Shown piece by piece: positions 9,075-50,715 of a DNA stretch of 64,000 nt. This DNA comes from Patescibacteria group bacterium (GTDB lineage: Bacteria; Patescibacteriota; JABMPQ01; JAHIRA01): assembly GCA_018818205.1 (NCBI GenBank), contig JAHISJ010000013.1:16661-80660 (forward strand), given 5' to 3'. The position numbers and the translations under genes are program-made. The notes under the pieces are model-generated. The model saw only the letters and a program-made list of their open reading frames with translations, did not search any database and had not been told where the DNA came from. Positions within the stretch are counted from its first letter, which is position 1. The number at the start of each line of letters is the position of its first letter.

Positions 9075-9076
9075 GA

Positions 9077-22229: not shown

Positions 22230-23231
<1,002 letters not shown>

Positions 23232-23276
23232 GGGGAATTTGACAAATAGAGCCCATAAAGATTACAATTCAGAGCT

Positions 23277-24221: not shown

Positions 24222-24225
24222 AGGG

Positions 24226-25335: not shown

Positions 25336-25339
25336 TAAT

Positions 25340-28119: not shown

Positions 28120-28120
28120 T

Positions 28121-28852: not shown

Positions 28853-28903
28853 TTAAGTTTTGGAATTGATATTTACTTTAATTACAAAGTTAGTGGTTTA
28901 TAG

Positions 28904-32725: not shown

Positions 32726-33584
32726 AGGATTCATTGGAAGAGCGGTCACCAGTTACTTGCAAAATAAAGAAGTGTTTGTGGTAACTGCAGATAGATCTGA
32801 CACCACGTGTGATTTTACTGTAGATTTAAAGAATAAAGATGATGTTCTTGATCTTGTAAGAAAAACGTTACCAAGTTATATTATTAATTGCGCGGGAATT
32901 TTAACTGCTGAGCATTGTTTTCTAAACCCTGTTTTTAGCATGAATGTTCTTAGTGCTCTAGAGGTATTTAAGAGTCAAATAACCTGTAAACTTATCGTCT
33001 TAGGATCTGCGTCAGAGTATGGAATAGTTGGTAAGCTTCCGGTATCTGAAGATGCTCCGTTGATGCCCCAGAACGCATATGACATGAGTAAGGTTATTGA
33101 AACATTGAGTGCACTAAAATATGCAGAGCTCCATGGTCTTAATGTCGTAATTGCACGGCTTTTTAATCCAATTGGTGCTTTAATGCACGAGCGAACACTC
33201 ATTCCAAGTCTTATTAGACAGGTGAAAGAATTAGCACGTAGCAGTCAAAAAAAGCTAGAGGTCAATAGGCTTGATTCTAAAAGGGATTTTTTGGCGGTTT
33301 CTGATGTAGCAGAAGCTATTGCCACAATTGCCCTATCGGAAGAGAATAAAGAGAAGGTATATAACATTGGCTCTGGGGAAGAGGCAAGCGTGGAGCAACT
33401 GATTCAGTCGTTTCTTGAAACTGTTAATTTTTCTCGGAATATAGAAATCGTTGAGACTAGTGAACAACCCGAGCCTCAATATGCATCTAGGGCGGATATT
33501 AGTAGAATTTCAACAGAGTTTGGCTGGAAACCTAAGAATAATTTAAGGGAAGTTGTTAACGAGCTGGTTAATGAGCAAGAATGA
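32697..33584 (+). CDS. NAD(P)-dependent sugar-nucleotide 4-reductase, Rmd-like (GDP-4-keto-6-deoxy-D-mannose reductase candidate)
   Basis: VLVLGSRGFIGRAV, YDMSK, RLFNPIG...RDFLAVSDVAEAI; architecture parallels Rmd; gmd is in the same window. Confidence 0.55.
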   Translation: MKKVLVLGSRGFIGRAVTSYLQNKEVFVVTADRSDTTCDFTVDLKNKDDVLDLVRKTLPSYIINCAGILTAEHCFLNPVFSMNVLSALEVFKSQITCKLIVLGSASEYGIVGKLPVSEDAPLMPQNAYDMSKVIETLSALKYAELHGLNVVIARLFNPIGALMHERTLIPSLIRQVKELARSSQKKLEVNRLDSKRDFLAVSDVAEAIATIALSEENKEKVYNIGSGEEASVEQLIQSFLETVNFSRNIEIVETSEQPEPQYASRADISRISTEFGWKPKNNLREVVNELVNEQE

Positions 33585-34342
33585 AGAATAAAATAAAGAT
33601 AATTATTGTAGGAGCAGGGGAGGCTGGTTCTCTTATTTCAAAGAATATTTATGATGATAAAAACTCTCCTTTTGAACTTGTAGGCTTTGTTGATGATGAT
33701 TTGAAGAAGAAAGAAAAAAAGATTAATGGGAAAAAGGTTTTGGGGGAGCTTAAAAATCTGAAAGAATTAATTGATGAGTTTTCAATAAAAGAATTGCTTA
33801 TAGCTATGCCCTCCGGACGCGGTGATGTCATTCGGAAGGTTCTGGATTGCACTAAAGATAGGCGGGTTCGGTATAAAATAATTCCCAGAAGTACCAAGGT
33901 GTTGATACAGGACTTTGGCGAGAGCTATCTTAAACATATCCGAGATGTATCGGTTGAAGATTTGCTTGGAGGTGAGATTGTAAAATCTGAACTTAAGGTA
34001 ATTGGAAAATATCTCAAGAATAAATGCATATTGATAACCGGTGCGGCAGGGTCAATTGGCTCTGAGCTTGCACGGCAAGTTGCCGCTTTTAGCAATGCTA
34101 AAAAGGTTATTTTGTTTGATTGGTCAGAAAACGGTATGTTCTTGTTGCAAAATGATATTCAGGGGAGCTATCCGAACCATCCCGTTGAGTTTGTTATTGG
34201 TGATATTAAAGATAAACAAAGATTGAATTATATTTTTGACACTTTTTCTCCTGATCTTGTGTTTCATGCTGCAGTGTATAAGCACGTACCTTTAATCTCT
34301 CCAGGGGTTCTATCCCCCGCCGCTTGCGGCGTGATATACTAG
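33581..34342 (+). pseudogene. 5' fragment of a CapD/PglF/WbpM-like NDP-sugar 4,6-dehydratase, truncated at the IS200 left end
   Basis: ILITGAAGSIGSELARQV...FHAAVYKHVPL, then the reading frame runs into the IS left end and stops; about half the expected length. Confidence 0.6.
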
Positions 34343-34825
34343 AGCTATGAGCACATATGTACATAAAAGTCATAATGTAAGCGTGTTACTGTATCACCTG
34401 GTATTTCCTGCAAAGTATCGTCGTGTGGTTATCGATGCACAGGTAGATGAAATTATCAAAGAAACATGCTTGGAAATTGCACAGAGGTACGAAGTACATT
34501 TCCTTGAAATAGGTACAGACAAGAACCACATACATCTGTTGGTACAAAGTGTTCCCACATACACGGTGACCAAACTTGTTACGATGATAAAAAATATTAC
34601 AGCCAGACACGTTTTCAACCAATGTCCCGATGTGAAAAAACAACTTTGGGGTGGAGAATTCTGGTCAGACGGATACTTTGCAAGTACGGTAAGTAAACAC
34701 GGAAATGAAGATATGATATCAAATTATGTAAAAAAGCAGAGAGAAGAGTACACAAAGCTACACAATAATCATCAACTTCGGTTATTCTAGCGGATACCCC
34801 GTCCGCTTGCGGCGGGGTAGTTTAT
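34300..34825 (+). mobile_element. IS200/IS605-family insertion sequence (tnpA only) with subterminal hairpins at both ends
   Basis: Left-end hairpin ccgccgcttgcggcg (about 34317-34331). Right-end hairpin ccccgtccgcttgcggcgggg (34797-34817). Y1 transposase gene between them. Confidence 0.75.
34347..34790 (+). CDS. tnpA: IS200/IS605 family transposase TnpA (HUH Y1)
   Basis: HUH motif HIHLLV, catalytic Tyr in SDGYFASTV; 147 aa. Confidence 0.85.
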   Translation: MSTYVHKSHNVSVLLYHLVFPAKYRRVVIDAQVDEIIKETCLEIAQRYEVHFLEIGTDKNHIHLLVQSVPTYTVTKLVTMIKNITARHVFNQCPDVKKQLWGGEFWSDGYFASTVSKHGNEDMISNYVKKQREEYTKLHNNHQLRLF

Positions 34826-34882
34826 TCTACATATAGGCCAGAATTTAACTATCTGACAATATCCAAATGGAATGAACGTGAA

Positions 34883-35467
34883 TTGGAAAATCATGGCTAT
34901 AGCTCAACTATTGCTTCTCCTGGAATAAACCAGGAAGTTTATAAATGTTATGATGACGTAGGAAGAAGAGATGATTTACTTCTTTCTGTTGGCTGGTCAC
35001 ATTACTTAAAGAATTTAGATTATCTTTTAGATGGGTGGAGAGGAATGAAAACCAAGCCGAAATTAGAGCTTTTTAGAATTGAGCCTCGTCTAGGTAAGAA
35101 GAATGGTGTAAAGTATTATTACAAACCAAATGATATTCAAGTGGCACGCTTGTATAACAGGGCAACCGTTTTTGCTCAAACTTCGCTTCATGAAGGGTTT
35201 TGTTTACCGATTCTTGAGGCTATGGCATGTGGATGTCCAGTTGTTTGTACGGATGCAGATGGCAATTTGGATTTTTGTGTTGATGGTAAGAATTGTTTAA
35301 TAGTTGCAAAAGATGATGTTAATGCTTTAACTGGTGCTCTTGAATCTTTGCTTAGAGATGAAGGCTTGAGAGAGAGACTTTCTCGAGAAGGGAAGAGAAC
35401 GGCTGAGAAATATGTGTGGGATATGCAAAATACTTTACTTGAAGCGTTTATGTATGATCTCAAATAG
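34883..35467 (+). pseudogene. 3' fragment of a GT4 glycosyltransferase (C-terminal half only), fused in frame to the IS right end
   Basis: [19 protein letters not shown] (EX7E) present but the N-terminal Rossmann half is absent. The open frame extends upstream into the IS right-end hairpin. Confidence 0.6.
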
Positions 35468-35514
35468 TATTTGATTTAATTTTATTGTTACTTTATTCAA
35501 AAAAATTGCGAGTC

Positions 35515-36492
35515 ATGGAGATAGTAAAGAAAAAAACACTTATTTCAGTAGTCATTCCTGTATATGGCTGTTATTCATGCTTAGAAGAGCTTTGCAATAG
35601 GATCAATAAAGTTTTTAAGCTTAAAATGCCAGACACTGAATATGAAGTTCTGCTCGTCAATGATGCTAGCCCAGATGAATCTTGGAAAAAAATTGAGGAA
35701 TTGGCTAAAATAGATAAACGTATTATGGGGATAAGTTTATCAAGGAATTTTGGACAGCATAGAGCAATCACAGCAGGTCTTGACTTTTCAGGTGGGGATT
35801 GGGTTGTTGTGATGGATTGTGACTTACAGGACCCTCCTGAAGAGATTGCAAGACTTTACAATGAAGCTCTTATGGGCTATGACATAGTGATGGGGAGGAG
35901 AAGTGTTCGGATAGATTCGTTTTTCAAAAAGGTATCATCAAAGCTTTTTCATTTGATTCATAATTGGCTGTCTGGTACAAAAACTGATCCAGATGTTGCA
36001 AATTTTTGTATTTGCTCGAGAAAAGTGGTTAATGCTATTAAGAAAATTCGAGAGCAAAGCAGATTTTTCCCAAGTTTACTACAATGGGTTGGATTCAAGA
36101 AAACATACATAGATATAAACCATGCGAAGAGAAGAGAAGGAAAGTCGTCGTATAGTTTGAGAAAGTTGATTAGCTTAGCCATTGAAGATATTGTTGCATT
36201 TTCTAATAAGCCTCTCAAAATGGCAGTCTATTTTGGTTTCTTTGTTTCTCTTTTTTCTTTCTCTTATGCGTTTTATTTAGTCGTAAGGTATATATTTTTT
36301 AGCTTTTCTGTTGAGGGTTGGACAAGCGTTATTGTTTCGATATGGCTTGCGACTGGTTTAATCATTATGATTGCTGGTATTGTTGGAATTTATGTTAGTA
36401 GAATCTTTGATGAGGTTAAAGGGAGGCCCATTTATATAGTTAAAGATACTACTGAAAATAGAACAATAGAGCGTGATTTACTTGTTGAATAA
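35515..36492 (+). CDS. GT2 polyprenol-phosphate aminosugar/hexose transferase (ArnC/GtrB-like) with two C-terminal TM helices
   Basis: ISVVIPVYG...LLVNDASPDES...GQHRAITAGL...VVMDCDLQDPPEEI. Confidence 0.75.
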   Translation: MEIVKKKTLISVVIPVYGCYSCLEELCNRINKVFKLKMPDTEYEVLLVNDASPDESWKKIEELAKIDKRIMGISLSRNFGQHRAITAGLDFSGGDWVVVMDCDLQDPPEEIARLYNEALMGYDIVMGRRSVRIDSFFKKVSSKLFHLIHNWLSGTKTDPDVANFCICSRKVVNAIKKIREQSRFFPSLLQWVGFKKTYIDINHAKRREGKSSYSLRKLISLAIEDIVAFSNKPLKMAVYFGFFVSLFSFSYAFYLVVRYIFFSFSVEGWTSVIVSIWLATGLIIMIAGIVGIYVSRIFDEVKGRPIYIVKDTTENRTIERDLLVE

Positions 36493-36591
36493 AAGTTTAC
36501 TAATTTCTATATTATAATAAATTTGTGTATATGGTAGAGTTTATTGCATGATTATCCATTCTGTTAGTTAACAATACGATTTGTATCAGAA

Positions 36592-36963
36592 ATGAACGCT
36601 ATATTATTTATCATTCTTACAATAATTTTCACGGTTTCAAGTCAGCTTCTCTTAAAATGGAGAGTTACAGCTATAATTGAGGAACATGGGCTATTAGAAA
36701 GTAAAGTTAGTATTATCTCTAAAACATTATTGGACCCATTAGCTCTTTTAGCTTTGTTTTTTGCCTTTGTTGCATCATTGTCTTGGATATTAGCACTTTC
36801 GAAAAAAATTGAACTAAGTATTGCTTATCCTTTAACAAGCATGAGTTTTGTATTAGTCTTTATATTTTCGATAGCTGTCTTTAACGAGTCTTTTAGTATA
36901 TTTAAGGTTATTGGTCTTCTCATAATCATAACAGGGGTAGTTTTTTTAAGTTTTAGTTTATGA
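36592..36963 (+). CDS. small 4-TM DMT/SMR-like protein, ArnE/ArnF-like lipid-linked sugar flippase subunit candidate
   Basis: C-terminal IAYPLTSMSFVLVFIFSIAVFNESFSIFKVIGLLIIITGVVFL aligns with the ArnE IAYPMLSLNFVWV...GGIVIL region. Confidence 0.6.
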   Translation: MNAILFIILTIIFTVSSQLLLKWRVTAIIEEHGLLESKVSIISKTLLDPLALLALFFAFVASLSWILALSKKIELSIAYPLTSMSFVLVFIFSIAVFNESFSIFKVIGLLIIITGVVFLSFSL

Positions 36964-37415
36964 TAGTTTTCCCAAAGTGCTTAATGAAAATAGAAACTGA
37001 TAAAAAGTGTGAACACATTTTATTTCGAGATGGCGTATATTATTTTGATAAAGATAAGTCCAAAGATTATCTAGAAGCGTTTGATCCTCGTTCATTTAAG
37101 GCTCTTTGTAACGCTGAAACGACACATTTTTGGTTTCAACAGAGAAAAAAATAAGAGCGAATATTTTTGTAGAGTATATTCCTAAGGAAAGTTCTGTACT
37201 TGAAATAGGTGCAGGAACAGGTATCATTACAAAAGAAATAAGAAATCCTGGATACTATTTCAGCAGCAGATATACATGGAGAGTCGCTTAAGCTCTAAAA
37301 CAAGTTAAAATAGGAAAAATCTCTAATACAATGTTAAATATTGTTACAAAAGCAGAAGAAGGGTTGACTCGATTTAAGCTGCCATTCGGAAGTAGCATAT
37401 TAATTATTGCCCAAA
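36960..37415 (+). pseudogene. degraded class I SAM-dependent methyltransferase (frameshift in an A7 run plus internal loss)
   Basis: ...THFWFQQRKK then a frame change at agagaaaaaaataag, continuing ...EYIPKESSVLEIGAGTGIITKEI (motif I) followed by a stop. A separate C-terminal remnant ends at 37415. Confidence 0.5.
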
Positions 37416-37419
37416 AAAA

Positions 37420-38568
37420 ATGATTCCTTTCAATATTCCTACTTTTTTAGGTAAAGAAAAAAGTTATCTATTAGATGCTATTGATAAATTAAAGCTTTGT
37501 GGCGATGGTTCTTACACAAAGAAGTGTCAAGAGCTAATGGAAAAAAAATTTCATTGTAAAAAGGTTTTACTGACAACTTCTTGCTCTCATGCTTTGGATA
37601 TGTCAGCTATCCTTATTGATGTAAAGGAGGGCGATGAAGTTATAATGCCTTCGTACACCTTTGTTTCAACTGCAAATGCTTTTGTGTTAAGGGGCGCTAA
37701 AGTTGTGTTTGTTGACATTCGGCCCGATACTATGAATATTGATGAAAACCTAATAGAAGAGGCAATTACAGAAAAGACTAAGGCTATTGTAGTTGTTCAC
37801 TATGCAGGGGTAGGTTGTGAAATGGACACAATTATTGATATTGGAAAAAAATATAATTTGAAAGTGATTGAAGACGCTGCTCAAGGAGTAAATGCAAAAT
37901 ACAATGGGAAGTATTTAGGAACAATAGGAGACATTGGGTGTTATAGTTTCCACGAGACTAAGAATTATACTTGTGGAGAAGGTGGAGCTCTTTTGCTTAA
38001 TGATGAGCAAATGATTGAAAGGGCTGAGATTATTAGAGAAAAAGGTACTAATAGAGCGAAGTTTTTTAGAGGGCAGGTTGATAAATACTCATGGGTTGAT
38101 ATAGGTTCATCTTTTTTGCCTAGTGAGTTGAATGCAGCTTATCTCTTGGCACAATTGGAAGATATCGAAAAAGTAAACGAACGTCGATTATCTATTTGGA
38201 ATATGTATCGTAAGAAACTCAATTTACTTGATCAAAATATTCACATTGAATTCCCATTCATTCCTAGCTCCTGCAAGCAAAATGGACACATGTTTTATAT
38301 TAAGGTTAAAGATTTAACTGAAAGACAGAATTTAATAGATTTTTTAAAAAATAGAGACATAATGACTGTTTTTCATTATATTCCTTTACATTCTTCTAAA
38401 GCAGGGAAAAAAAATGGAAGATTTTTTGGGAAGGAAATTTATACTACTAAGGAGAGCGAGAAACTGTTGCGTTTGCCGATGTTTTATAGTCTATGCGAAG
38501 AAGATATTGATTATGTCTCAAGTGAAATAATAAATTATTATAAGCAAAATGATCTTTCAATATCTTAA
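37420..38568 (+). CDS. wecE: DegT/DnrJ/EryC1-family PLP aminotransferase, dTDP-4-keto-6-deoxyhexose 4-transaminase (WecE-like)
   Basis: MIPFNIPTF...KLCGDGSYTKKCQELMEKKF...EVIMPSYTFVSTANAFVLRGAKVVFVDIRPDTMNIDE...SFHETKNYTCGEGGALLLND closely parallels E. coli WecE. Confidence 0.75.
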   Translation: MIPFNIPTFLGKEKSYLLDAIDKLKLCGDGSYTKKCQELMEKKFHCKKVLLTTSCSHALDMSAILIDVKEGDEVIMPSYTFVSTANAFVLRGAKVVFVDIRPDTMNIDENLIEEAITEKTKAIVVVHYAGVGCEMDTIIDIGKKYNLKVIEDAAQGVNAKYNGKYLGTIGDIGCYSFHETKNYTCGEGGALLLNDEQMIERAEIIREKGTNRAKFFRGQVDKYSWVDIGSSFLPSELNAAYLLAQLEDIEKVNERRLSIWNMYRKKLNLLDQNIHIEFPFIPSSCKQNGHMFYIKVKDLTERQNLIDFLKNRDIMTVFHYIPLHSSKAGKKNGRFFGKEIYTTKESEKLLRLPMFYSLCEEDIDYVSSEIINYYKQNDLSIS

Positions 38569-40015
38569 ATTAAATAAAAGTGAATTTAAGTATTTCTTGT
38601 ATGCTTTCTTAGCCTCACTTTTGGCAAGGGGCGTAGTATTGTTTAATCTTTCTTACGCGATAGATGATTACTCATATATGTTTACCCATATTACTTTGGA
38701 TAGAAATTGTATATCTTTTGGTAGGTGGGGGCTTGGTATTGTTAATGATTTTTTCTTTTATTTAGGAATTGAGGGTCCATACGCTTTTCCTTTTGTTGCT
38801 ATATTATCTTTTCTAACTTTGGCTTATGTTAGTGTTTTAATATGTAGAATGTGGGACGTGAAGGGGTTTTGGGCTTGTATATTGGTTTCACTTTTTTTCA
38901 TTCTCCATCCATATCAGTCTGAAATTTATACCTTTAGGATAGCATCAATTTCCTTTTTCGTTGCGCTTTTGTTTGCATTTACCTCTTTTTATTTAGCGGG
39001 AGTTTTAAAAAGAAGGCTATTGTTCTTACCGATAATGCTATTTGTTTTTTCTTTGAGCGTATACCAAATAGTATTGAATTACGTTTTTGTAGTATATTTT
39101 TTCTCTTTAATAGTCTTCTTACTCTTTAAACAAAATGAGAGGAGGAATAGAGAGTCTTTATTCTCGCAATTTATTTTGCTTATAGGGGGTACTTTTGTCT
39201 ACTTCATAGTAAATAAGCTAATTTTATACTTAACTCAGATAGAAACTCCTAAGCGTGCAGAATTTGTGACTTTCGATCAAATTCCTGATCGAGTGAAAGA
39301 AATTTCCTTGTTGGTTTTTGGGATGTTTTATCAAGCTGAAAGTATTCTACCTTTTTTGACAAAAATATTATTACTTTTATTTCTTTTACTCTTTATTTTT
39401 TCTGTCTCTATTTTTTTACTAAAAAAGAAATTGTATTTAAAATTAGCACTTTTTATTTTTGTTTTCATTTTGGCTTATTTTTCAACAATAGGCGTCAATA
39501 TGATGAATGGTGTTTGGTGGCCAGCTCCTAGGGTTCTGGCTAGTGTCGGTATTTTCTGGGGAGGCATTTTGGCAATTACATATAAGCTTAAAATGAAACT
39601 AATTTTGAAGATTTCCTTGACTCTTTCAATAGTAGTTTTATTTAGTTTTGTAGGAGTCAACAATAAAGTTTTTGTTGATCAAATACGTATTAACAAGTTC
39701 GATTTTAGTTCAGCAATAAGAATTACTAGTTTACTTGAAAAACAGCCTAATTTTTCACCTTCTATGCCATTGTACATAGATGGGCGTATACAATATACTT
39801 ATTTACCAGTTACTATGATGTATGACATGAATGTATCTGCTTTATTACAGCCTTGGTCAAAAGTTTCTCTTCTTAATGAATCCGTTGGGTATAGTTTTTT
39901 ACAACCAAATCCAATGCAGGTTGATATAGGTAGAAAGGCATGTGAAGACGCTGCAAAATGGCCTAGCGAGAAATCTGTCTTTGTTGTTGAAGGGGTAGGT
40001 GTTGTTTGTCTATAA
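38549..40015 (+). CDS. polytopic membrane protein, GT-C-fold glycosyltransferase candidate (ArnT/GtrII-like role)
   Basis: About 12 TM helices; acidic first-loop motif YAIDDYSYM about 40 aa from the N-terminus. Follows the polyprenol-P GT2 / flippase-like / aminotransferase genes. Confidence 0.5.
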   Translation: MIFQYLKLNKSEFKYFLYAFLASLLARGVVLFNLSYAIDDYSYMFTHITLDRNCISFGRWGLGIVNDFFFYLGIEGPYAFPFVAILSFLTLAYVSVLICRMWDVKGFWACILVSLFFILHPYQSEIYTFRIASISFFVALLFAFTSFYLAGVLKRRLLFLPIMLFVFSLSVYQIVLNYVFVVYFFSLIVFLLFKQNERRNRESLFSQFILLIGGTFVYFIVNKLILYLTQIETPKRAEFVTFDQIPDRVKEISLLVFGMFYQAESILPFLTKILLLLFLLLFIFSVSIFLLKKKLYLKLALFIFVFILAYFSTIGVNMMNGVWWPAPRVLASVGIFWGGILAITYKLKMKLILKISLTLSIVVLFSFVGVNNKVFVDQIRINKFDFSSAIRITSLLEKQPNFSPSMPLYIDGRIQYTYLPVTMMYDMNVSALLQPWSKVSLLNESVGYSFLQPNPMQVDIGRKACEDAAKWPSEKSVFVVEGVGVVCL

Positions 40016-40055
40016 AAAAAGAACGCATAAGGCTGCGTTCATAAATAATTAAGAT

Positions 40056-41936
40056 TTACTTTGCTTGAAGTGAGTATGCAATGCTAATTTCCTTATCACT
40101 TAATGCTCTGCTAATGTAAGCAATCTTTGCATAGCGAGCTTTCATGTGATAATCGGTATAGACTCCTGTTAGAGGGTTCCAAGAAATGAACATGTACGAG
40201 GAAGAGGTAGCTGCACTACATGTAATATTGGTGGATGTTCCATCAAGTTTGCCATCAATGTAGAACTTTACGGTCGATGCTGCCTTGTTGTATACATATG
40301 TAAGGTGCACATATTTGTTGATTACAAGCGAGGTTTTTGGGCTTCTATCCATACCTGTCCCACAGTACCCAACATATTTGTTTGCCCAATGACTAAGGCT
40401 TAGTGATGTTCCAGGTGATCTAATAATAAATGACGCACCATAGCTAGGAGTTGTTGTTATTTGTGCATAAACCATGACAGTGAAGGATTCAACAGAAGTT
40501 GTCTGAAGTGTTCCTACATTTGTGATAACAGCATATCCTTTGATAGAGGTATCAAAATATGTTTTGGCCCCAAGGGTCACTACACGGCCACCGTTTTTGA
40601 TTCCCGCGTGCCTTCCTTTACCGGAGACATCTGGAATTTTGATGTTGTCGTTTTTTTGTGGTACTAACAAGAATTCGAGGGCAGAGCAATTAGATTCATC
40701 TGTTTGACCATCGCAGTTATCGTCGATGTTGTTGCTACAGACTTCAACACCGTAACTACCGCCGCAACATCTACCATGCAGGCATAGCTGTCCCAACGTA
40801 CACTGTGTGCCGCATTTTCCACAGTTATTCTTGTCTACTTGGAGGTTAAACCCATTATCAACAACTCCATCACAATCATTATCCTTCCCATCACAGATCT
40901 CTTTTGAGGAGGGCATAGGTGTACAGGTCTGAGCTACGCCACCAACACATTTCTGAACCGTATTGGAGCACTCTCCAACACCACATGCTAACGTTCCAAG
41001 ATTCTCATCAATTTGGCCGTTGCAGTTGTTGTCTTTGCCATCGCAGACTTCCGTAGAAGGCTGTTTTGGCACACAACTTTGCGGTTTTCCGCTTGAGCAG
41101 TTGTTAACTTCAACAAAGCACTCTCCAACACCACAAGAACTTTTCCCTAAATCTTCATCAATCGCACCATCACAGTCGTTATCAAGACCGTCACAAGTCT
41201 CAGGCTTTGGTTCAACGAGGCCTATACAAGGTCCCCATGATCCATCAGATAAGCACGTTTGCCTTCCTCTCTTACAAAGTCCTTTAAGCGGTACTGTTCC
41301 ACAATCTAGGGTATTTCCTGCTGTACAACAAGGGATACCATCATCAATCTGACCGTTGCAGTCGTTGTCAAGTCTGTCGCAGGTCTCCTTAGCAGGTTGA
41401 TTCTTTTGAATGCAAATTAGTTTACCGGATGCACAAGTATATGAACCTTCAGTACAAATTCCCGGTTTTCCTGTTACACAAGGCTTACCAAATAATTTCT
41501 TGTATTTATCACAGGGATCAATTTTTTCAGATTCAGGGAGAATCTCTGGAGAAACCTTTTCTTCAGATGATGTAGATTCTTCGTGAACAAAACGTTCTTC
41601 TTGAATGGTGCGTTCAGGTTCCCGAGGGATTTCCTCAGGAAGTTCTCCTGCATCATTTAACTCAGCAGTGTATTCATCAATACGCTGTTCATTAATATCT
41701 TCACCAAATTCATGATCAATTAACTGTTCTTTTGTGTCAACAAGAATTTTTTCTTTGTCACCACCTGTTTCAATTTTATCTTTGGGGATACAATATTCAC
41801 CACTTCGGCAGTAATGGTTTGCTGGGCAATCACTATCAACGTCACATTCGAGCATACCTGAGGGGTTTGAACAATTCAGTGTAAAAATAGCAGAAAAAAG
41901 AAAAATTACATACAAAAACTTCGGCATTTTTGTCAT
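40056..41936 (-). CDS. secreted Cys/Asp-rich repeat protein (MopE-type putative metal-binding repeats) with acidic linker and C-terminal LamG/concanavalin-like domain
   Basis: Start set at ATG 41936 with AGGAGG SD. Signal peptide MTKMPKFLYVIFLFSAIFTLNCS. At least 5 repeats ending CDGxDNDCDGxxD. C-terminal jelly-roll-like region. Confidence 0.7.
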   Translation of the reverse strand: MTKMPKFLYVIFLFSAIFTLNCSNPSGMLECDVDSDCPANHYCRSGEYCIPKDKIETGGDKEKILVDTKEQLIDHEFGEDINEQRIDEYTAELNDAGELPEEIPREPERTIQEERFVHEESTSSEEKVSPEILPESEKIDPCDKYKKLFGKPCVTGKPGICTEGSYTCASGKLICIQKNQPAKETCDRLDNDCNGQIDDGIPCCTAGNTLDCGTVPLKGLCKRGRQTCLSDGSWGPCIGLVEPKPETCDGLDNDCDGAIDEDLGKSSCGVGECFVEVNNCSSGKPQSCVPKQPSTEVCDGKDNNCNGQIDENLGTLACGVGECSNTVQKCVGGVAQTCTPMPSSKEICDGKDNDCDGVVDNGFNLQVDKNNCGKCGTQCTLGQLCLHGRCCGGSYGVEVCSNNIDDNCDGQTDESNCSALEFLLVPQKNDNIKIPDVSGKGRHAGIKNGGRVVTLGAKTYFDTSIKGYAVITNVGTLQTTSVESFTVMVYAQITTTPSYGASFIIRSPGTSLSLSHWANKYVGYCGTGMDRSPKTSLVINKYVHLTYVYNKAASTVKFYIDGKLDGTSTNITCSAATSSSYMFISWNPLTGVYTDYHMKARYAKIAYISRALSDKEISIAYSLQAK

Positions 41937-41981
41937 AATCTCCTCCTCTTGAGGTGTAAAAGGGTTCAAAGTTTGCGCTTT

Positions 41982-42010
41982 ATTATGGAACGTTTTGCCG
42001 AAAAAAGCAA
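41982..42010 (-). promoter_or_regulatory. candidate promoter TTGCTT-17-CATAAT for the 40056-41936 gene
   Basis: Reverse-complement inspection; about 45 nt upstream of the start codon. Confidence 0.35.
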
Positions 42011-42047
42011 GTCCTTTTGGTAATGTGCACACACATATGGCGGTTTT

Positions 42048-42076
42048 TTGACAGGGTCCAGGAAGTTGAATACAAT
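42048..42076 (+). promoter_or_regulatory. sigma70-consensus promoter TTGACA-17-TACAAT, about 380 nt upstream of the 42456 gene
   Basis: ttgaca 42048-42053; tacaat 42071-42076. Confidence 0.45.
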
Positions 42077-42455
42077 CTCTACTAATGTACAAGAAGAGCA
42101 CTATCGATGGATAGCACTCATTATGGTGGAAAAGATATCCATAGCATTGATTGCAGGGATTTCTCCTTTCCCTGATAGAACCATTAGGTATTGGCTTCCT
42201 CGGTTGGCATTGTAAACCTTGTAAGTATGTCTAGAAGACCAAAATCATATTCTTGTGAAACACTAATATGTGTCCAAAATTATCAAGGAGAAGAGAATAA
42301 GATGAAAAACTGCTAATTTTTTTTATCAAATAGATTGTTTTACATGATTATTTCTAAGGCACTGGAGTTTAAGCCCATAACGTTATCTATTTGAACGGAT
42401 GCGTATATCTGCTATTCTTGATTTATTAGTAGTAAAAATTTTGTCAGTGAAAAAA

Positions 42456-45400
42456 ATGAAGAGAGTTGGAAAAGTAAAAAAAGTTGTCATATTTTTTGTT
42501 TTAATGGCGATCTGTACGCTTATCTTGTTACCAAGTCTTATTTCTTTGTCAGAGAATGAAATTTTTGGTGTAGAAGGTGACGCCTATCAAGTATACTCTA
42601 CAACCTTTTACAAAGATGCAATAAAAGGAGATTCAATTTTTGAAAAGATTTTTGGTTATAAAAAAGGCATTGATGTTCCTCTTGACTTACTCAGTTTACA
42701 CACATATCGATATATGTCATTTAAGCTTATAGGTAATCCTCTTGGCTTTAATCTAGTGTGGATCGCTTCTTTCTATTTAACTATCGTTGCTGGTTATCTT
42801 CTTATTAAAGTTTTTACCAAATCAGATTTAGCGGCAATAATTGGCGGGACATTAATAACTTTTGTCCCAACACATTTTGCATTTGGTTTGGGTTTTGGAG
42901 GTGCGACGCATATTGAATTTATTGTTTTTTTTCTGTATTTTTTCTTTTCTTTTTTTCAAAAACCAAAAATTTGGAAATTTATTGGAACTCTTGTAAGTTT
43001 AGCCATAATGGTGGCCAACGAACATCATTTTGCATTTTTTTCAATTATTTTTGTCCTAGTATATCTGTGTTATCTATGCATAGCAAAGAGAGATATTTTA
43101 AAAAAAGTTGCAACAACGAACTATGTAATAGCTTCTTGCATATTTTTCTTGGTTAGTTGTATCTATTTAGTCATATTCTATATCAATTTAGATAAAGTAG
43201 CTGAATTACAACTAGGAATAGAGGAAACAGTAAGCCGGTCCGTTGATGTTCTTGGCTTTTTTGTTCCTTACCAATTTCATCCTATTTGGGGAGATTTCTT
43301 TTCTAGAGGGATAACAAGTAAATTTATCACTCCCGTTTCGGAAACGACAGCGTATCTTGGGTTTGTATCGATTTTTTTGATTATAATCTTTTTTGTGAAA
43401 AGCAAAAAGAAATTTGATTATAATCAAAAAGCCTTATTCTTGATTGGCTTTATTTTTTTATGCATAGCCTTAGGGCCGTTATTACATCTAAATGGCTTAT
43501 TTAACCCTCAAATTCGACTTCCATATTATCTGGTGTACTCATTTTTACCAATATTTTCATCAATGAGAGCTGTCGGAAGAGCGGTAATTTACTTAGAAAT
43601 TATAGCTTTTATTTTTGCATCAACTGGTTTTGCTTTACTTATTAAAAAAAAGTCAATCAAGAAACAGTTTTTTTATGCCGGAGCAGTAATTATTCTTATC
43701 GCTATAGAATTTCTAGCTATCTCTCCGACAGTTTCCACAAACTATCCCGATTTCTATAACAAGATTGCCAACGAAGAAGGTAATTTCAAAATATTGCAAA
43801 TTCTAAACTCAACTAGTTATGCATATGCTTCAAGGGCGCTCTATTTCAATTCTCATCATAATAAAACAGCTGTTGGTGGATACACTTTTGCACGCCCGGT
43901 ACCGGGTATGTTTCAAATGGAGACTGGCACCCCGGTAATCGAGGACTTACTCTATCGAATACCGAAAGGTGAAGGTATTGACCCCTCGTTGGTATATGAT
44001 CCAAAAGAAGTATCAAATCTCGTTCTTAATTACAATAATATTAAATATATTGTGCAAGAAAAAGAATATATTTCAAACAAGAATGTTGGTCCAGAGCATC
44101 AATTGACGCCCGAAAAGTTTTCAGAAATAAAAGAGTATATAACTTCAAATATTAAAGGTGAGGTTGTGCAAGATGACAATGAAATATATGTTTTTAAGGT
44201 TAAAGAAATAAATAATCAAGATATGTTTGTTTCAAGAGGAATAGGCTTTAAAGAAGTTCCAGAAAAACATACTACTAAGCTTTATAAAGAAGATGGCTAT
44301 TTTTACGTTAATAATCCTTCTGATCACGTCCGGAAGGGATATTTGACTTTTAAGGCTTCTGCACGGGGTGAAAGTAGGAAACTATCGGTGTCATTTAACG
44401 AGAATGATTTTCAAGATGTTGAACTGGGGAAAACAGAAAATATCTTTTCTCTCGAGCTCGGTAACATTTTACCGGGACAAAATCGAGTGAAATTTATTTC
44501 TCCTAGTTACAATGAATCTGAGATCGAATTGTCTGATTTTATAATTTTTGAAGATCTTGTCAATAATCATGGTTTACTATCCAATCAATCAATCAATGAT
44601 ACTCTTGAGTTTCCACCTACTATTAGGAGTAAAGAAGGAAGTAATCAGTATCCAAAATCCCTTTTAAACAGCGATTGTATTTCAAGTGGTGTCGCATGTT
44701 CACTGTTGCCGAAAAATTTTTCAGAAAAAAAAGGGATTCTTTCAGATTTCCAGTATGGAGTTAATTATGCAAAATTTTTACAAAACAAAGGTATAAATCG
44801 TATTGTAATTCATAAAGATCGTTTAACATTACAGGATCTTTTTTACGCTCAATATTTTTTCACTTTCCATTTGAAAAATTATGAGTTGATTAATGAAGAC
44901 AACAATACATTACTTTACGTGAAAGATGTAGATGCTCCTTCACTTGATACTAGTGTTTTTGTAGATTTTTCTGAGAGTTTAGAGGGAAGTGAATCAAAAA
45001 GTTTGTTAGATCACCGTAAGCTTTTGGATACTAATTCATTGATTCGTTTGAGTTCAGAAAAACAAATAGCTGGAAATTTGAATGTTGATTTATTCCTTGA
45101 CACAATTAGCACTAAAAAGTATCAAATTGAAGTAGCAGATGAACAGGGCAAGATTTTAGAGAACGTGCTAATTGAGCCGAATAAACCAATAAATTTGAGT
45201 TTTGCCGTGAATAGTTCAGAGCTTATTAGGTTCAATATTTTAGAGGAAGATAGATCTCCAGTAGAAACTGTTCCGCCGGTATATATTTCTAACATGTGGT
45301 TTGATGATTCTGAGGGAATATATAACTACTTTGATAGTAAAACGTTGGAGGATAACAAGTATAATGATCTCGTGGCTTTTAAAAACTTTGCAGGCGATAT

Positions 45401-45845
45401 CTCAGACTTGTCTGTTGTAACAGAGTCTATAGGAAGAGAGTCTAAATACATTCTTTTTAGAGATCCGACAAAACAGGTAAGTTTTGAAACAGAGGTCAGA
45501 ATTAATGATTGGATCGGCTCAACCATAGGTATTGGCTTTGTTAAGGATTACGGTGAAGTAAAAGACACTATTTCTACTGGTGTTTTGAGCATGCAATGTT
45601 CCGGTGTGAGGACATGCTCATTTGCTGGTAAACAATTTTCATTAAAACAACCACTCACGGACAACGGAAAATTGAACTTTAGTTTTAACGATGGCAAGGT
45701 TGTTATTAAGCAAGACGGCGAGAAAGTTTTTGAAGATAGGATTGAAATTGAAGCAGTCTATGGTATAGTGTTTGGTAGTTTTAACAACACGGATAATTTA
45801 AAGATTGATTTTGATTTACTTCATTTTAGCCTATTTTTCCCATGA
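42456..45845 (+). CDS. large membrane protein: N-terminal polytopic domain (about 450 aa, YfhO/GT-C-like) plus about 680-aa extracytoplasmic C-terminal region of unknown function
   Basis: Start moved to the internal ATG at 42456. At least 10 TM helices, then a long hydrophilic region with no recognisable motifs. Confidence 0.6.
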   Translation: MKRVGKVKKVVIFFVLMAICTLILLPSLISLSENEIFGVEGDAYQVYSTTFYKDAIKGDSIFEKIFGYKKGIDVPLDLLSLHTYRYMSFKLIGNPLGFNLVWIASFYLTIVAGYLLIKVFTKSDLAAIIGGTLITFVPTHFAFGLGFGGATHIEFIVFFLYFFFSFFQKPKIWKFIGTLVSLAIMVANEHHFAFFSIIFVLVYLCYLCIAKRDILKKVATTNYVIASCIFFLVSCIYLVIFYINLDKVAELQLGIEETVSRSVDVLGFFVPYQFHPIWGDFFSRGITSKFITPVSETTAYLGFVSIFLIIIFFVKSKKKFDYNQKALFLIGFIFLCIALGPLLHLNGLFNPQIRLPYYLVYSFLPIFSSMRAVGRAVIYLEIIAFIFASTGFALLIKKKSIKKQFFYAGAVIILIAIEFLAISPTVSTNYPDFYNKIANEEGNFKILQILNSTSYAYASRALYFNSHHNKTAVGGYTFARPVPGMFQMETGTPVIEDLLYRIPKGEGIDPSLVYDPKEVSNLVLNYNNIKYIVQEKEYISNKNVGPEHQLTPEKFSEIKEYITSNIKGEVVQDDNEIYVFKVKEINNQDMFVSRGIGFKEVPEKHTTKLYKEDGYFYVNNPSDHVRKGYLTFKASARGESRKLSVSFNENDFQDVELGKTENIFSLELGNILPGQNRVKFISPSYNESEIELSDFIIFEDLVNNHGLLSNQSINDTLEFPPTIRSKEGSNQYPKSLLNSDCISSGVACSLLPKNFSEKKGILSDFQYGVNYAKFLQNKGINRIVIHKDRLTLQDLFYAQYFFTFHLKNYELINEDNNTLLYVKDVDAPSLDTSVFVDFSESLEGSESKSLLDHRKLLDTNSLIRLSSEKQIAGNLNVDLFLDTISTKKYQIEVADEQGKILENVLIEPNKPINLSFAVNSSELIRFNILEEDRSPVETVPPVYISNMWFDDSEGIYNYFDSKTLEDNKYNDLVAFKNFAGDISDLSVVTESIGRESKYILFRDPTKQVSFETEVRINDWIGSTIGIGFVKDYGEVKDTISTGVLSMQCSGVRTCSFAGKQFSLKQPLTDNGKLNFSFNDGKVVIKQDGEKVFEDRIEIEAVYGIVFGSFNNTDNLKIDFDLLHFSLFFP

Positions 45846-46513
45846 AGGAAAAAGTTTGTCTAGTAATCCCTGCTTATAATGAAGTAGGATCTCTTGAAGG
45901 AGTCGTAAAGGAGGCGTCTCGCTATTCTGATACAATAATTGTCGTAGATGACGGTTCACGTGATAAAACAGGGGATTTTTGTATAGAAAAAAATGAAAAG
46001 GACGTATATTTTCTTAGACATGTTGTCAATTTAGGTAAAGGGGCTGCCATGAGGACGGGAGCTATTTTTGCACAAAACCTCAAGTGTGATTTTTTGGTCT
46101 TTATGGATGCCGATGGACAACATGATCCTCAAGACATCAAAAAGTTGGTGGATTGTGTAAAAGAGAAAAAAGGACTGGCCATTGGTAAGCGTGAAAAAAA
46201 TAAAAATATGCCCTTAGCTATGAAAGTAGGGAATTTTTCACTTTCTTTACTGATAAAGACTCTTTTTAAACTTTCAGTTGAAGATACACAGTCGGGTTTT
46301 AGAGCAATAAGATTAGAGGATTTGGATAAGATTCTCTGGACTAGTTGTGATTATAATGTAGAAACGGAAATGCTTATCAAAGCTAAAAAGAATCAAATAT
46401 CGATATTTGAGGTTCCAATAAAAACAGTATATAATGATAAATATAAGGGAACGACATTTATTGATGGAATTAAAATTTTTTTACAACTTTTAAAACTTAG
46501 ATTTTATGATTAA
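45842..46513 (+). CDS. GT2 polyprenol-phosphate glycosyltransferase, soluble DPM1-like short form
   Basis: VCLVIPAYNE...VVDDGSRDKT...GKGAAMRTG...MDADGQHDPQDI. Confidence 0.8.
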   Translation: MKEKVCLVIPAYNEVGSLEGVVKEASRYSDTIIVVDDGSRDKTGDFCIEKNEKDVYFLRHVVNLGKGAAMRTGAIFAQNLKCDFLVFMDADGQHDPQDIKKLVDCVKEKKGLAIGKREKNKNMPLAMKVGNFSLSLLIKTLFKLSVEDTQSGFRAIRLEDLDKILWTSCDYNVETEMLIKAKKNQISIFEVPIKTVYNDKYKGTTFIDGIKIFLQLLKLRFYD

Positions 46514-46841
46514 TGGAGTAGCAACACTAGGTGTGTTTTTTGGCTTGTTTATGGGTTATTATACCTTTGTTAAGTATAAAAGAAAGGAAATTAGTTCGTG
46601 GCAAGCTTTAGGCTGGGAAGTAATATGGACTGGTATTATTGTTGTGGTATTGATTCCGGGTCAAATTAGTAATTTTCTTGATAAGGTTAAGATTGCGCGT
46701 GCTCTCGATCTTTTTTTAGTTTTAGGGATGATTTTTTTGCTCGCAGTGTCTTTCTATCTATTTGTAAACATAAATAAGCAAAAGAGGAAACATGAGGAGC
46801 TCGTGCAAATTTTAGCTATAAAGAAAGCCGAGAAGAGATGA
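46506..46841 (+). CDS. small membrane protein, DUF2304-like (typical partner of DPM1-like GT2)
   Basis: 111 aa, 3-4 TM helices; gene overlap with the upstream GT2. Confidence 0.5.
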   Translation: MINGVATLGVFFGLFMGYYTFVKYKRKEISSWQALGWEVIWTGIIVVVLIPGQISNFLDKVKIARALDLFLVLGMIFLLAVSFYLFVNINKQKRKHEELVQILAIKKAEKR

Positions 46842-47965
46842 GGATTCTTTTTGTTTTAGAATATTATTATCCTAATGTGGGTGGCGTGGAGACGTTGTTT
46901 AAGAATCTCGCCGAAGGTTTAGCTAAGGAAGGACATCATGTTTGTGTGGTAACAAGTAAAATTCAAGCGTCTCCGTTTCGTGAAAAAGTTAACGGAGTAG
47001 AAATAGTTCGAGTGTTTTGTCCTAATATTTTTGATCGACGATACTGGTTTACATTTACTGCTATTCCAAAGGTGTTAGTTTTAGCTAGAAAGTATGATAT
47101 TGTGCACACAACTACCTATAATGCGATAATTCCAGCAAAAATTGCTAGTGTACTACTAGGGAAACCAATAGTGTTAACAGTTCTTGAGGTGATGGATCAT
47201 TTATTCTATAAAATAAACTTATCTAAAGTTTCTGCGTTTTTTCACTGGTGTTTTGAGAGGTTAGTTCTAAGATTTTATTATAGTAAAATTATTGCAATTT
47301 CTGATTTTACCAAGAGTAGGGTAGTAGATTTAGTACAGAAAAAAATGAGGGGTAATGTTGTTAGAGTCTATCATGGATTAGATTATAATAATTTTTGTTT
47401 TGAAAATATTAGAAAGCGAAACCTGAAAAAAGAATTAGGGCTTGATGATCGTTTTGTGTTCTTGTACTTTGGCAGACCTGGTTTTTTAAAGGGCGTAGAT
47501 ATGTTGGTTGATTCGTTTAACCTCTTAAGTAAGACTCACAAAGATGTTTTTTTGTTGCTAATTCTTTCTAAAAAGCCTTTAAAGCAATATAAGAGTATAC
47601 AAAATAAAGTTAATGTATCTGAAAATAAATCTATAAAAATAATTGATTCTGTACCTTATAGTGATCTTCCGTCTTATATACATATGGCGGACAGAGTGGT
47701 TATTCCATCAATTTCAGAAGGGTTTGGATATACTGCGGCAGAAGCATGCACGTTAAAAAAACCAGTAATCGTAAATATCAAAGAGACATCGTTAGGTGAA
47801 GTAGTGGGCGGTGCATACACTCAGGTCATACAAGCAGATATAGATTCACTTTTTGACGCTCTTTTGAAGTCTTGCAGGGGAGAATTTGAGTATGCTGTCC
47901 CAAAACGTTTTGAATGGAAGGATACTATTTTGACGACAATTAAGTTGTATAAGGAAATCATTTGA
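46838..47965 (+). CDS. glycosyltransferase family 4
   Basis: PSISEGFGYTAAEACTLKKPVIV (EX7E). Confidence 0.8.
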   Translation: MRILFVLEYYYPNVGGVETLFKNLAEGLAKEGHHVCVVTSKIQASPFREKVNGVEIVRVFCPNIFDRRYWFTFTAIPKVLVLARKYDIVHTTTYNAIIPAKIASVLLGKPIVLTVLEVMDHLFYKINLSKVSAFFHWCFERLVLRFYYSKIIAISDFTKSRVVDLVQKKMRGNVVRVYHGLDYNNFCFENIRKRNLKKELGLDDRFVFLYFGRPGFLKGVDMLVDSFNLLSKTHKDVFLLLILSKKPLKQYKSIQNKVNVSENKSIKIIDSVPYSDLPSYIHMADRVVIPSISEGFGYTAAEACTLKKPVIVNIKETSLGEVVGGAYTQVIQADIDSLFDALLKSCRGEFEYAVPKRFEWKDTILTTIKLYKEII

Positions 47966-48984
47966 TGAAGATTGCTATTCTTACACCTACTTTATATAAA
48001 TATAGCGGTATAGATAGGGTTGCATATAAGCAAGCTAAAGAATTTGCTGCTCAAGGGAATACTGTAAAATTTATTACTTTTAAATCTGAGATTGAGAGTC
48101 ATGGAAGGAATATTGAAGTAATTGAACTTGGTATGCCGTCCTCGTCTTTTTTTGAACGAGTGTATCGATTATTCTTTTTTTTAGATTATTTCAAAGTAAT
48201 TACCGCAAAAAAAGCAATACACGACTGTCAGAAAATTATTTGTCACTCATATCCTATGAGTGTAATTGCTTGTAAGGTAAAAAAAGAGAGACCACAGATA
48301 AAATATATTTATTATAATCATGGAGTGGCAGAACCTAGCGCATTTGAATCTATAATTGAAAAGGTGTATTTGCGTATTTTTGGTAAACTATCTAACCATT
48401 TTCTCAAAAATGCTGATGAAGTTATTTGTATTAGCAAATATTTACAAAACGTTCTTGAAAATGAAACTGGTATTGGGAGCAAGGTTGTATATAATGAGCT
48501 AGTTCTAGATCATAGTATTAAACCTAAAACAAAAATAAAGAGTAAGTTTGGTATTGGAGAAGACCGTTTTATTCTATTCGTAGGGAGAGTTTCTCCTCAT
48601 AAAGGTGTGCATTTGCTCATTAAGGCATTTAAGTTGGTTCAAGAGAAGGACAAAGATCTTAAATTAGTAATAGTTGGAAAAAATACCTTTGGGAAATATG
48701 CTAAACGGCTTAAAGATATAGCGGCTGATAATGTTATCATTACAGGTTCCGTTTCAGACGAAGAACTTATAGATTTTTATAGGCATTGTAGTTTGTATGC
48801 TACTGCATCACTTTGGGAAGGTTTTGATTTGCCAATTATTGAAGCTCAAAAAGAAGTTAAGCCTATTGTTGCCTTTGATATAGGACCACATTTTGAAATA
48901 GCAGATAAAAATACAATGCTCGTTGAAAAAGGCGATGTACAAGCTTTTGCTCTCGCAATAAATAAAGCACTCAATGAAGAGTAG
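47962..48984 (+). CDS. glycosyltransferase family 4
   Basis: SLWEGFDLPIIEAQKEVKPIVAFD. Confidence 0.8.
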   Translation: MMKIAILTPTLYKYSGIDRVAYKQAKEFAAQGNTVKFITFKSEIESHGRNIEVIELGMPSSSFFERVYRLFFFLDYFKVITAKKAIHDCQKIICHSYPMSVIACKVKKERPQIKYIYYNHGVAEPSAFESIIEKVYLRIFGKLSNHFLKNADEVICISKYLQNVLENETGIGSKVVYNELVLDHSIKPKTKIKSKFGIGEDRFILFVGRVSPHKGVHLLIKAFKLVQEKDKDLKLVIVGKNTFGKYAKRLKDIAADNVIITGSVSDEELIDFYRHCSLYATASLWEGFDLPIIEAQKEVKPIVAFDIGPHFEIADKNTMLVEKGDVQAFALAINKALNEE

Positions 48985-50524: not shown

Positions 50525-50715
50525 TGTCGATAATTTGTATTCTATTAGCTCTTCCGATATGGTTGGTGAAAAACTTTTCACTTTTATTGAATATTGATGG
50601 AGATAATGTCGTTTTTATATCCCTTTTCTTAGGCTTTCCCTTTGAAGTACTTTATTTATATATTTTGCTTGTAGGTGTTAGAAAATTTCTTTTACTATTC
50701 AATGAAAAACACTAG
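50524..50715 (+). CDS. possible small hydrophobic protein (63 aa)
   Basis: Fills the gap between flanking genes; 2 predicted TM helices; no other support. Confidence 0.25.
   Translation: MSIICILLALPIWLVKNFSLLLNIDGDNVVFISLFLGFPFEVLYLYILLVGVRKFLLLFNEKH

Follow-up and report, generated by a model that had tools for sequence, protein, structure and literature searches.

Proteins with tandem PF11617 (Cu-binding_MopE) repeats, which NCBI names "MopE-related protein", are abundant in the Myxococcota/Polyangia and are also found in Bacteroidota and Patescibacteria. They share a repeat of approximately 50 amino acids (aa) with six Cys residues which ends in C-D-G-x-D-N-D-C-D-G-x-x-D-E, and some of them possess a C-terminal Laminin_G_3 domain (P0088, P0096). 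No experimental characterisation of a PF11617 repeat protein was found in the searched literature. Here, we describe a gene for such a protein within a 64-kb stretch of DNA from a Patescibacteria group bacterium (contig JAHISJ010000013.1). This whole stretch is called the window, and positions refer to it unless another contig is named. Patescibacteria of the Candidate Phyla Radiation (CPR) are tiny, mostly uncultured and thought to live attached to other cells; to our knowledge, next to nothing is known about the proteins and glycans of their surface. The original prediction, made from the DNA letters and their translations, described the gene product as a secreted protein with MopE-type metal-binding repeats and a LamG-like lectin domain that recognises the glycan made by the surrounding genes. 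The reading that we favour, with a probability of about one half, is a surface lipoprotein with a Ca2+-stiffened stalk whose head domain binds an envelope glycan and which works together with an adjacent decoration cassette.

The name of the repeat family refers to MopE of Methylococcus. The crystal structure of MopE* has been determined, and its Cu(I) site, composed of His132, His203 and kynurenine-130, lies within the MopE* domain. The Asp-rich N-terminal segment of MopE* (GLDTLDRDGDGSTADADC), probably the stretch that is matched by PF11617, was tentatively tied to weak Cu(II) binding (PMC3423442). A different relationship was proposed by Tucker et al., who aligned the PF11617 consensus with the Cys-rich core of the teneurins (PMC3278476). 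The C-rich core of teneurin-4 was solved at 1.5 Å and contains three Ca2+ in a geometry resembling both thrombospondin type-3 (TSP3) repeats and low-density lipoprotein receptor class A (LDL-A) modules (PMC9058538).

For the neighbouring genes, the closest described systems are the multi-component transmembrane glycosylation systems CsbB/GtcA/YfhO, PpgS/Rv3632/Rv3779 and Pgf of Streptococcus mutans. In mycobacteria and corynebacteria PpgS and its helper Rv3632 make polyprenyl-phosphate-GalNAc, from which a glycosyltransferase (GT) of the GT-C type, acting outside the membrane, passes the sugar on to arabinogalactan (PMC9671496). YfhO enzymes act likewise on teichoic acids and on proteins (PMC5836110, PMC12041528). 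Surface adhesins are also encoded in the S. mutans Pgf cluster (PMC12041528).

Domain Architecture and Proposed Function

The gene encodes a protein of 626 aa which shows 100% identity and coverage to the NCBI protein KKH43_02435 (P0001) of Patescibacteria group bacterium. It is located on a contig of 82,950 bp from a metagenome-assembled genome (MAG). As originally predicted, the protein starts with a signal peptide, continues with an acidic linker and MopE-type Cys/Asp repeats and ends with a concanavalin/LamG-like jelly roll (Table 1). PF11617 and Laminin_G_3 had been named as the profiles by which this architecture could be checked, and both were recovered above their cut-offs. PF11617 matched in five stretches with an E-value of 8.2e-24 (84 bits versus a cut-off of 27), which is far beyond chance. 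Laminin_G_3 (PF13385) was matched with an E-value of 3.9e-10 (40.5 bits versus a cut-off of 27.6) over profile positions 6–151 of 151 (146/151).

At least five repeats of about 45 aa had been expected. We found exactly five, each closing with C-[DSN]-x-x-D-[ND]-[DN]-C-[DN]-G-x-x-D (at aa 198, 260, 310, 360 and 413). The expected length proved too short, as the repeats are spaced by 62, 50, 50 and 53 aa, which corresponds to a period of about 50 aa (50–62). All five contain the core C-[DN]-G-x-D-[ND]-[DN]-C-[DN]-G-x-x-D-[ED] of PF11617 proteins together with its upstream Glu, in agreement with the repeat logo described below. No tandem repeats were detected in the gene at the DNA level. Thus, the repeat copies are apparently old and diverged.

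Relatives with PF11617 repeats are numerous: 5188 database proteins were retrieved at E ≤ 1e-3, with 35–50% identity across the repeat region. The protein is a fairly ordinary member of a widespread, uncharacterised family, one more entry whose function can be approached from its context alone. It differs from other PF11617 proteins in its five repeats (median of 10 in the top matches), its low-GC CPR host, the putative lipoprotein anchor, the acidic tether, the rare LamG subtype and the location in a glycan locus. The whole architecture is common to four proteins, namely the protein described here, the product of open reading frame (ORF) 9812..11215 on contig L001, P0096 of locus L002 and P0067. 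The L001 protein is the closest orthologue (62% identity) and is represented in the database by a truncated gene call, P0012. P0096 shows 28% identity by BLASTP and 38% in the alignment. With the alignment of the C-terminal part as query, a scan of genome contigs yielded nothing beyond the generic repeat motif, which came from Bacteroidota and Myxococcota, and a metagenome scan for loci of the family led again to the L001 contig alone.

We propose the following model for the function of the protein. After Sec-dependent export Cys22 would be lipid-modified, which would anchor the protein on the outer face of the cytoplasmic membrane. The acidic linker of 80 residues would serve as a flexible tether. 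It would be followed by five disulfide-knotted modules of approximately 50 aa with about 18 predicted disulfides. The acidic cluster of each module (E-x-C-D-G-x-D-N-D-C-D-G-x-x-D-E) may bind Ca2+ in a thrombospondin-type-3/LDL-A-like manner, and the modules together would form a rigid stalk which holds the LamG/ConA-like jelly roll at a distance from the membrane. The head would bind carbohydrate, most likely the envelope glycan that is built and decorated by the surrounding locus. Finally, the protein would cooperate with the adjacent cassette of a YfhO-like GT-C, a PpgS-like glycosyltransferase of family 2 (GT2) and a DUF2304 protein, for instance by keeping hold of the polymer or by displaying it. 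The protein is a candidate for the means by which a CPR cell senses or presents the sugars that coat it.

The Probable Metal of the Repeats

The original prediction had proposed a Ca/Cu-binding motif known from MopE and reminiscent of thrombospondin type-3 repeats. A logo of 1115 repeats, built from the 120 best homologues, reads E97%-x-C-[DN]-G-x-D100%-[ND]-[DN]-C-[DN]-G100%-x-x-D99%-[ED] and contains a cluster of the DxDxDG type. The acidic positions conserved in PF11617 map to the Ca2+ ligands of the C-rich core of teneurin-4 (PMC3278476, PMC9058538). Since the DxDxDG-type motif maps to these ligands, the metal of the repeats is most likely Ca2+ and not Cu. This mapping also favours the proposed TSP3-like character of the repeats.

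The likeness to teneurin C-rich, TSP3 and LDL-A modules consists of a disulfide-braced acidic cluster, D-x-D-x-D-G-x-x-D. In contrast to these modules, the bacterial repeats are arranged in tandem, and each carries an extra beta-hairpin module (C-G-x-G-x-C...C...C). The resemblance lies at the motif level only, and the homology of PF11617 and teneurins is based on a motif alignment, which speaks against the calcium assignment: the profile of the repeats retrieved no chain of the PDB at E ≤ 10, the whole protein none at E ≤ 1, and a Foldseek search of the repeat model against the PDB gave nothing at E < 0.001. TSP_3 (PF02412) was absent from the Pfam matches of the protein at E ≤ 1; separate TSP_3 domains occur in some homologues. 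The repeat model used was obtained with AlphaFold2 for aa 201–417 (alignment of 54 sequences). It exhibited a predicted local distance difference test (pLDDT) value of >90 for three consecutive repeats (aa 201–360), which were modelled as short beta-hairpins, and the NCGxCG module and the fifth repeat were poorly predicted. By these results, the PF11617 repeat has a fold that is predicted with confidence and for which no homologue has been solved.

Copper has also to be considered. The Pfam family is named Cu-binding_MopE, and the Asp-rich N-terminal segment of MopE* has the tentative link to weak Cu(II) binding mentioned above (PMC3423442). A copper-handling protein like Methylococcus MopE/CorA would capture Cu through the PF11617 motif. 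However, the high-affinity site of MopE (His132/His203/kynurenine-130) resides in a domain that is missing here. Among the PDB chains, which should include MopE*, no similarity of the protein to the MopE* copper domain was found, and nothing in the protein could be aligned to the domain that bears the His/His/kynurenine site. Furthermore, the five repeats contain only one His, one Met and one Trp, and no copper-homeostasis genes were found within the window. MopE-like copper binding was rejected because the MopE* domain is absent and His, Met and Trp are few in the repeats. MopE/CorA and the protein described here have in common that they are surface-associated or secreted. The protein is not a member of MopE/CorA, and we regard a role in copper handling as highly improbable. 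Thus, the calcium part of the original proposal is retained and the copper part abandoned. The label "Cu-binding_MopE", which is attached to thousands of database proteins, is probably a misnomer for residues that appear to form a Ca2+ site of the thrombospondin/teneurin type.

Signal Peptide and Probable Membrane Anchor

The predicted secretion of the protein has to be modified. The signal peptide is present, and free secretion is disfavoured by a putative lipobox Cys conserved in the family. In all four family members a Cys directly follows the hydrophobic core of the signal peptide (FTLNC, LTLNC, LLGGC and FSAC). Not counting this putative anchor Cys and the Cys residues of the signal peptide, the numbers of Cys residues in the four proteins are even (42, 22, 58 and 44), a parity that acylation of one Cys and pairing of all others would produce. 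Because of the conserved Cys and the even remaining counts, the protein is probably a lipoprotein and lipid-anchored rather than freely secreted. Against this assignment stands the sequence of the lipobox. It is canonical in two of the four members (LLGG-C and FSA-C), and the protein described here and its L001 orthologue carry TLN-C, with a non-canonical Asn at position −1. Neither lgt nor lspA was found within the 64-kb window, the part of the genome that was covered. The pattern of four Cys residues behind the signal peptide recurs in the corresponding position of the L001 ORF product, P0096 and P0067 with slightly varying spacings, and every family member has an acidic linker.

The LamG-Like Head Domain

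The Laminin_G_3 match agrees with the originally predicted jelly roll. An AlphaFold2 model of aa 366–626, based on five sequences, was all-beta. A Foldseek search with this model gave 255 PDB matches at E ≤ 0.001, the best with an E-value of about 3e-8. The 50 of these matches that were listed were all chains of clostridial neurotoxins or non-toxic non-haemagglutinin (NTNH) proteins, and the best were receptor-binding (Hc) fragments. Several of the matched Hc structures were solved with bound ganglioside or galactose. The N-terminal half of the clostridial neurotoxin Hc is a lectin-like jelly roll. The structural model is supportive only, and in this capacity it agrees with Pfam in suggesting a LamG fold. 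Two points count against a carbohydrate-binding head: the mean pLDDT of the model was only 52.7, which is low confidence, and LamG domains have protein ligands as often as sugars.

When 1.84 billion cluster representatives were searched exhaustively by HMMER with the LamG region, only two of them were recovered at E < 1e-30, the protein itself and P0012. Consequently, the LamG subtype is rare and divergent as judged by this search. At E < 1e-3 the same search gave 164 representatives, mostly very large multi-LamG proteins.

The Neighbouring Glycosylation Cassette and Its Conservation

The entire 64-kb window is a glycan locus with Wzy-type, Wzx-type, rhamnose-pathway, DegT and epimerase genes and with many genes for GT2 and family 4 glycosyltransferases (GT4). 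For a small genome this is a very large investment. The divergently oriented neighbour of the gene encodes a protein of 1148 aa. Direct Pfam and NCBIfam scans of this protein gave no match. It is regarded as YfhO-like because of its NCBI name ("YfhO family"), the precomputed Pfam assignment PF19830, its topology and a [GD]DA[FY] motif conserved after the first transmembrane segment (TM1). The GT2 encoded next to it had its best NCBIfam matches with PpgS (1e-27), AglJ, dolichyl-P-hexose transferase, PgfS (1.6e-12) and ArnC, all of which are polyprenyl-phosphate sugar synthases. Together with the DUF2304 gene, a three-component set of GT2 synthase, small membrane helper and GT-C is encoded at 42399..46841. 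This set follows the same logic as CsbB/GtcA/YfhO, PpgS/Rv3632/Rv3779 and the Pgf proteins, and by analogy it may decorate polymers or proteins outside the membrane. In contrast to the described multi-component systems, the GT-C is here a DUF6311 protein with an extra domain of 700 aa. This extracytoplasmic C-terminal region of approximately 700 aa had no Pfam/NCBIfam match, and only about the first 650 aa of the YfhO-like protein are conserved with its homologues in the loci L002 and L024.

The original prediction had tied the protein to the surrounding glycan genes. This link was strengthened by the comparison of loci, as all four proteins with the shared architecture (4/4) are encoded in a glycan-locus setting. 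In L002, the gene for P0096 is again divergent from a YfhO-like gene, whose product is 29% identical (E = 3e-74) to that of the window. The YfhO-like gene is followed by an orthologous small GT2 gene (37% identity to the GT2 of the window) and then by a DUF2304 gene. Thus, the adjacency to the cassette is kept in two distant loci, the window and L002, although the adjoining PF11617 proteins are only about 28–38% identical. P0088, a PF11617 and LamG protein from a GC-rich, non-CPR organism, is encoded among regulators and not among glycan genes. Therefore, the glycan association seems to be specific to the subfamily described here. The conserved context makes a lectin role towards the locally made glycan more plausible.

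Some observations weigh against a functional link to the cassette. The L001 locus has no neighbours in common with the window beyond generic GT2 and GT4 genes, and its only GT-C is of the PMT_2 type and 6 kb away. The L024 locus, which encodes a homologue of the YfhO-like protein, contains no counterpart of the gene within its 5.8 kb. Moreover, only four family members were found, and two of them are on short contigs.

Instead of cooperating with the cassette, the lipoprotein could be its substrate. It would then be a glycoprotein of the envelope, and the YfhO-like GT-C would O-glycosylate its linker or its Ser/Thr-rich head on the outer side of the membrane. The sugar donor would be a polyprenyl-phosphate sugar from the PpgS-like GT2 and the DUF2304 protein. 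There are precedents for such a role. In S. mutans, genes for PgfS (GT-A), for the YfhO-domain GT-C proteins PgfM1/M2 and for the adhesins which these glycosylate lie together in the Pgf cluster, and the Pgf pathway also glycosylates PrsA of this species; the YfhO-family protein PgtC2 of S. pyogenes glucosylates membrane proteins including the lipoprotein PrsA1 (PMC12041528). The PgfS match of the GT2, the conservation of the four-gene arrangement in two loci and a content of 26% Ser+Thr in the LamG region agree with this explanation. However, known protein substrates of YfhO-type enzymes have Ser/Thr-rich disordered regions, whereas the linker found here is Glu/Pro-rich with about 11% Ser+Thr, and family members do not agree in the Ser/Thr content of this linker. 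The part that is rich in Ser/Thr is predicted to be a folded domain of beta structure. A polysaccharide is an equally conceivable target of the cassette, given the action of PpgS/Rv3632/Rv3779 on arabinogalactan (PMC9671496). We therefore consider a substrate role unlikely.

We also considered an adhesin for a foreign surface, such as a mineral, a biofilm matrix or the cell of a host, as the CPR bacterium is presumably an episymbiont. The position in the glycan locus would then merely result from clustering and joint turnover of genes for surface structures. An anchor, a long tether, a rigid Ca2+ repeat stalk and a terminal jelly roll would be the architecture of an adhesin, and a second surface protein with FG-GAP repeats and a ConA-like domain is encoded on the minus strand of the same locus (5806..8928). 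That the closest orthologue keeps the glycan-locus setting and none of the same neighbours is as expected for a mobile surface-variation gene, and the LamG subfamily is rare and fast-evolving. Loose clustering alone, however, hardly explains why the adjacency to the cassette is kept across about 28–38% protein identity. Likewise, the GC content at the third codon position (GC3) of the gene (0.327 versus a window mean of 0.312, standard deviation 0.051) gives no sign of recent transfer. In our judgement an adhesin of this kind is a rather improbable explanation.

A more far-reaching proposal goes beyond the glycan-binding lipoprotein that we favour, and we put it forward with low confidence. 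The lipoprotein could serve a CPR extracytoplasmic glycosylation cassette as its dedicated fourth component, either as a Ca2+-dependent lectin which brings in or gauges the acceptor polymer on behalf of the GT-C or as the glycoprotein product of the cassette, which would form the surface by which the episymbiont contacts its host. We know of no multi-component transmembrane glycosylation system for which a Cys-rich Ca-repeat/LamG lipoprotein or such an accessory protein has been described.

Gene Boundaries and Expression Signals

The predicted Shine-Dalgarno sequence AGGAGG was located 5 nt before the ATG start codon (Table 1). The hairpin of the terminator begins 16 nt past the stop codon (RNA fold of −10.4 kcal/mol, z = −3.5). 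With its own Shine-Dalgarno sequence and a terminator after the stop codon, the gene looks like a self-contained transcription unit. The promoter of its own that had also been predicted could not be confirmed, as promoter-like sites occurred at chance level (8 found versus 7.9 expected from shuffled sequence). A near-perfect sigma-70-like site on the plus strand (42048..42076; TTGACA, 17 nt, TACAAT; 11 of 12 positions) lies in the divergent intergenic region, approximately 320 bp upstream of the YfhO-like gene and within a spurious GTG-extended frame of the gene described here. This longer ORF, which starts with GTG at 42101 (681 aa), was ruled out, as the ATG at 41936 has the Shine-Dalgarno sequence, opens the signal peptide and agrees with the NCBI entry.

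Table 1: Features of the gene, the encoded protein and adjacent genes. Positions are those of the window.
Feature	Position	Strand	Description and basis
Complete coding sequence, 626 aa + stop	40056..41936	−	ORF and translation; PF11617 repeats and LamG-like C-terminal domain
Shine-Dalgarno sequence AGGAGG	41942..41947	−	5 nt before ATG at 41936; read from sequence
Intrinsic terminator	40011..40040	−	7-bp GC-rich stem, 6-nt loop, U7 run; consensus scan
Signal peptide with lipobox-like end FTLN-C22, aa 1–22	41871..41936	−	KxxxK n-region, 14-aa hydrophobic core, Cys22
Small 4-Cys module, aa 23–60	41757..41870	−	C31, C37, C43, C49; C-x5-C-x5-C-x5-C pattern
Acidic Glu/Pro-rich linker, aa 61–140	41517..41756	−	Cys-free, 26% Glu, net charge −18; presumed disordered
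Five PF11617 Cys/Asp repeats, aa 141–417	40686..41516	−	36 Cys; Pfam, regular expression, alignment
Repeat R1	41337..41516	−	
Repeat R2	41151..41336	−	
Repeat R3	41001..41150	−	
Repeat R4	40851..41000	−	
NCGxCG module and repeat R5	40692..40850	−	
LamG/ConA-like jelly-roll domain, aa 418–626	40059..40685	−	Pfam match aa 468–618 (40083..40535)
GtrII-like polytopic glucosyltransferase, convergent	38549..40015	+	Pfam Glucos_trans_II, E = 3e-23; multiple transmembrane segments
YfhO-like/DUF6311 protein, 1148 aa, divergent; presumed GT-C	42399..45845	+	About 11 transmembrane segments, outside domain of ~700 aa
PpgS-like GT2, putative polyprenyl-phosphate sugar synthase, 223 aa	45842..46513	+	NCBIfam
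DUF2304 small membrane protein, Rv3632-type helper of PpgS	46506..46841	+	Pfam DUF2304, E = 4.9e-19

The gene was predicted to lie on the opposite strand inside an otherwise co-directional glycan locus. Indeed, all ORFs of at least 150 aa between 9133 and 58969 are on the plus strand apart from this gene. This count leaves out an antisense ORF of 161 aa (14760..15245) which is wholly contained in a plus-strand gene. Further minus-strand genes of the window are located at 5806..8928 and 58959..62452. The GC content of the gene is 41%, compared with 31–33% in its flanks. The excess sits at codon position 2 (Cys, Gly, Ser and Thr codons) and is thus caused by the amino acid composition. The raised GC content was therefore rejected as evidence of horizontal transfer, the GC3 value given above being within the spread of the window.

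Other Features of the Locus and of Related Loci

The GtrII-like neighbour, which converges with the gene, is predicted to be another transferase acting outside the membrane. The minus-strand gene at 5806..8928 encodes a protein of 1040 aa with an N-terminal membrane anchor, FG-GAP repeats (Ca-binding type) and a match to the ConA-like jelly-roll family PF06439. It shares its design logic, Ca-type repeats plus a lectin-like fold, with the protein described here.

Genes for other CPR proteins with PF11617 repeats were observed near genes for polysaccharide pyruvyl transferases (L026 of the Patescibacteria MAG GCA_043820285.1, 9284..13282; L003, 2251..3390). One pyruvyl transferase gene is located directly downstream of the gene for P0067 and one approximately 3 kb upstream of that for P0008. 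In L026, two PF11617 genes are arranged in tandem. A gene at positions 1..831 of L024, a short Logan contig, showed 65% protein identity to the window ORF 23277..24221. This match suggests a related organism or a shared pool of glycan genes in run SRR22387952.

No Rfam families and no tRNAs were found in the window. An ORF of 1273 aa (28904..32725, plus strand) encodes a fusion of an FkbM methyltransferase, two GT2 domains and one GT4 domain. A match to DUF6541 (E = 5e-11) was obtained for one of the three large plus-strand ORFs at 48974..50524, 52781..54262 and 54544..56142, and no Pfam match for the remaining two, of 493 and 532 aa. These ORFs may encode further polytopic transferases or polymerases.

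Two plus-strand ORFs probably represent gene fragments. The first (33581..34342, 253 aa) contains only the N-terminal part of a Polysacc_synt_2 dehydratase and the second (34883..35467, 194 aa) only the C-terminal half of a GT4/Glycos_transf_1 domain. A gap of 540 bp lies between them. These putative fragments suggest decay or rearrangement in the locus. The GC content steps down within the locus from approximately 0.39–0.44 over the first 24 kb (1..24000) to approximately 0.30–0.34 (24000..62000). GC3 falls likewise, from approximately 0.33–0.40 to 0.24–0.29, and the locus gives the impression of a mosaic with two or more blocks.

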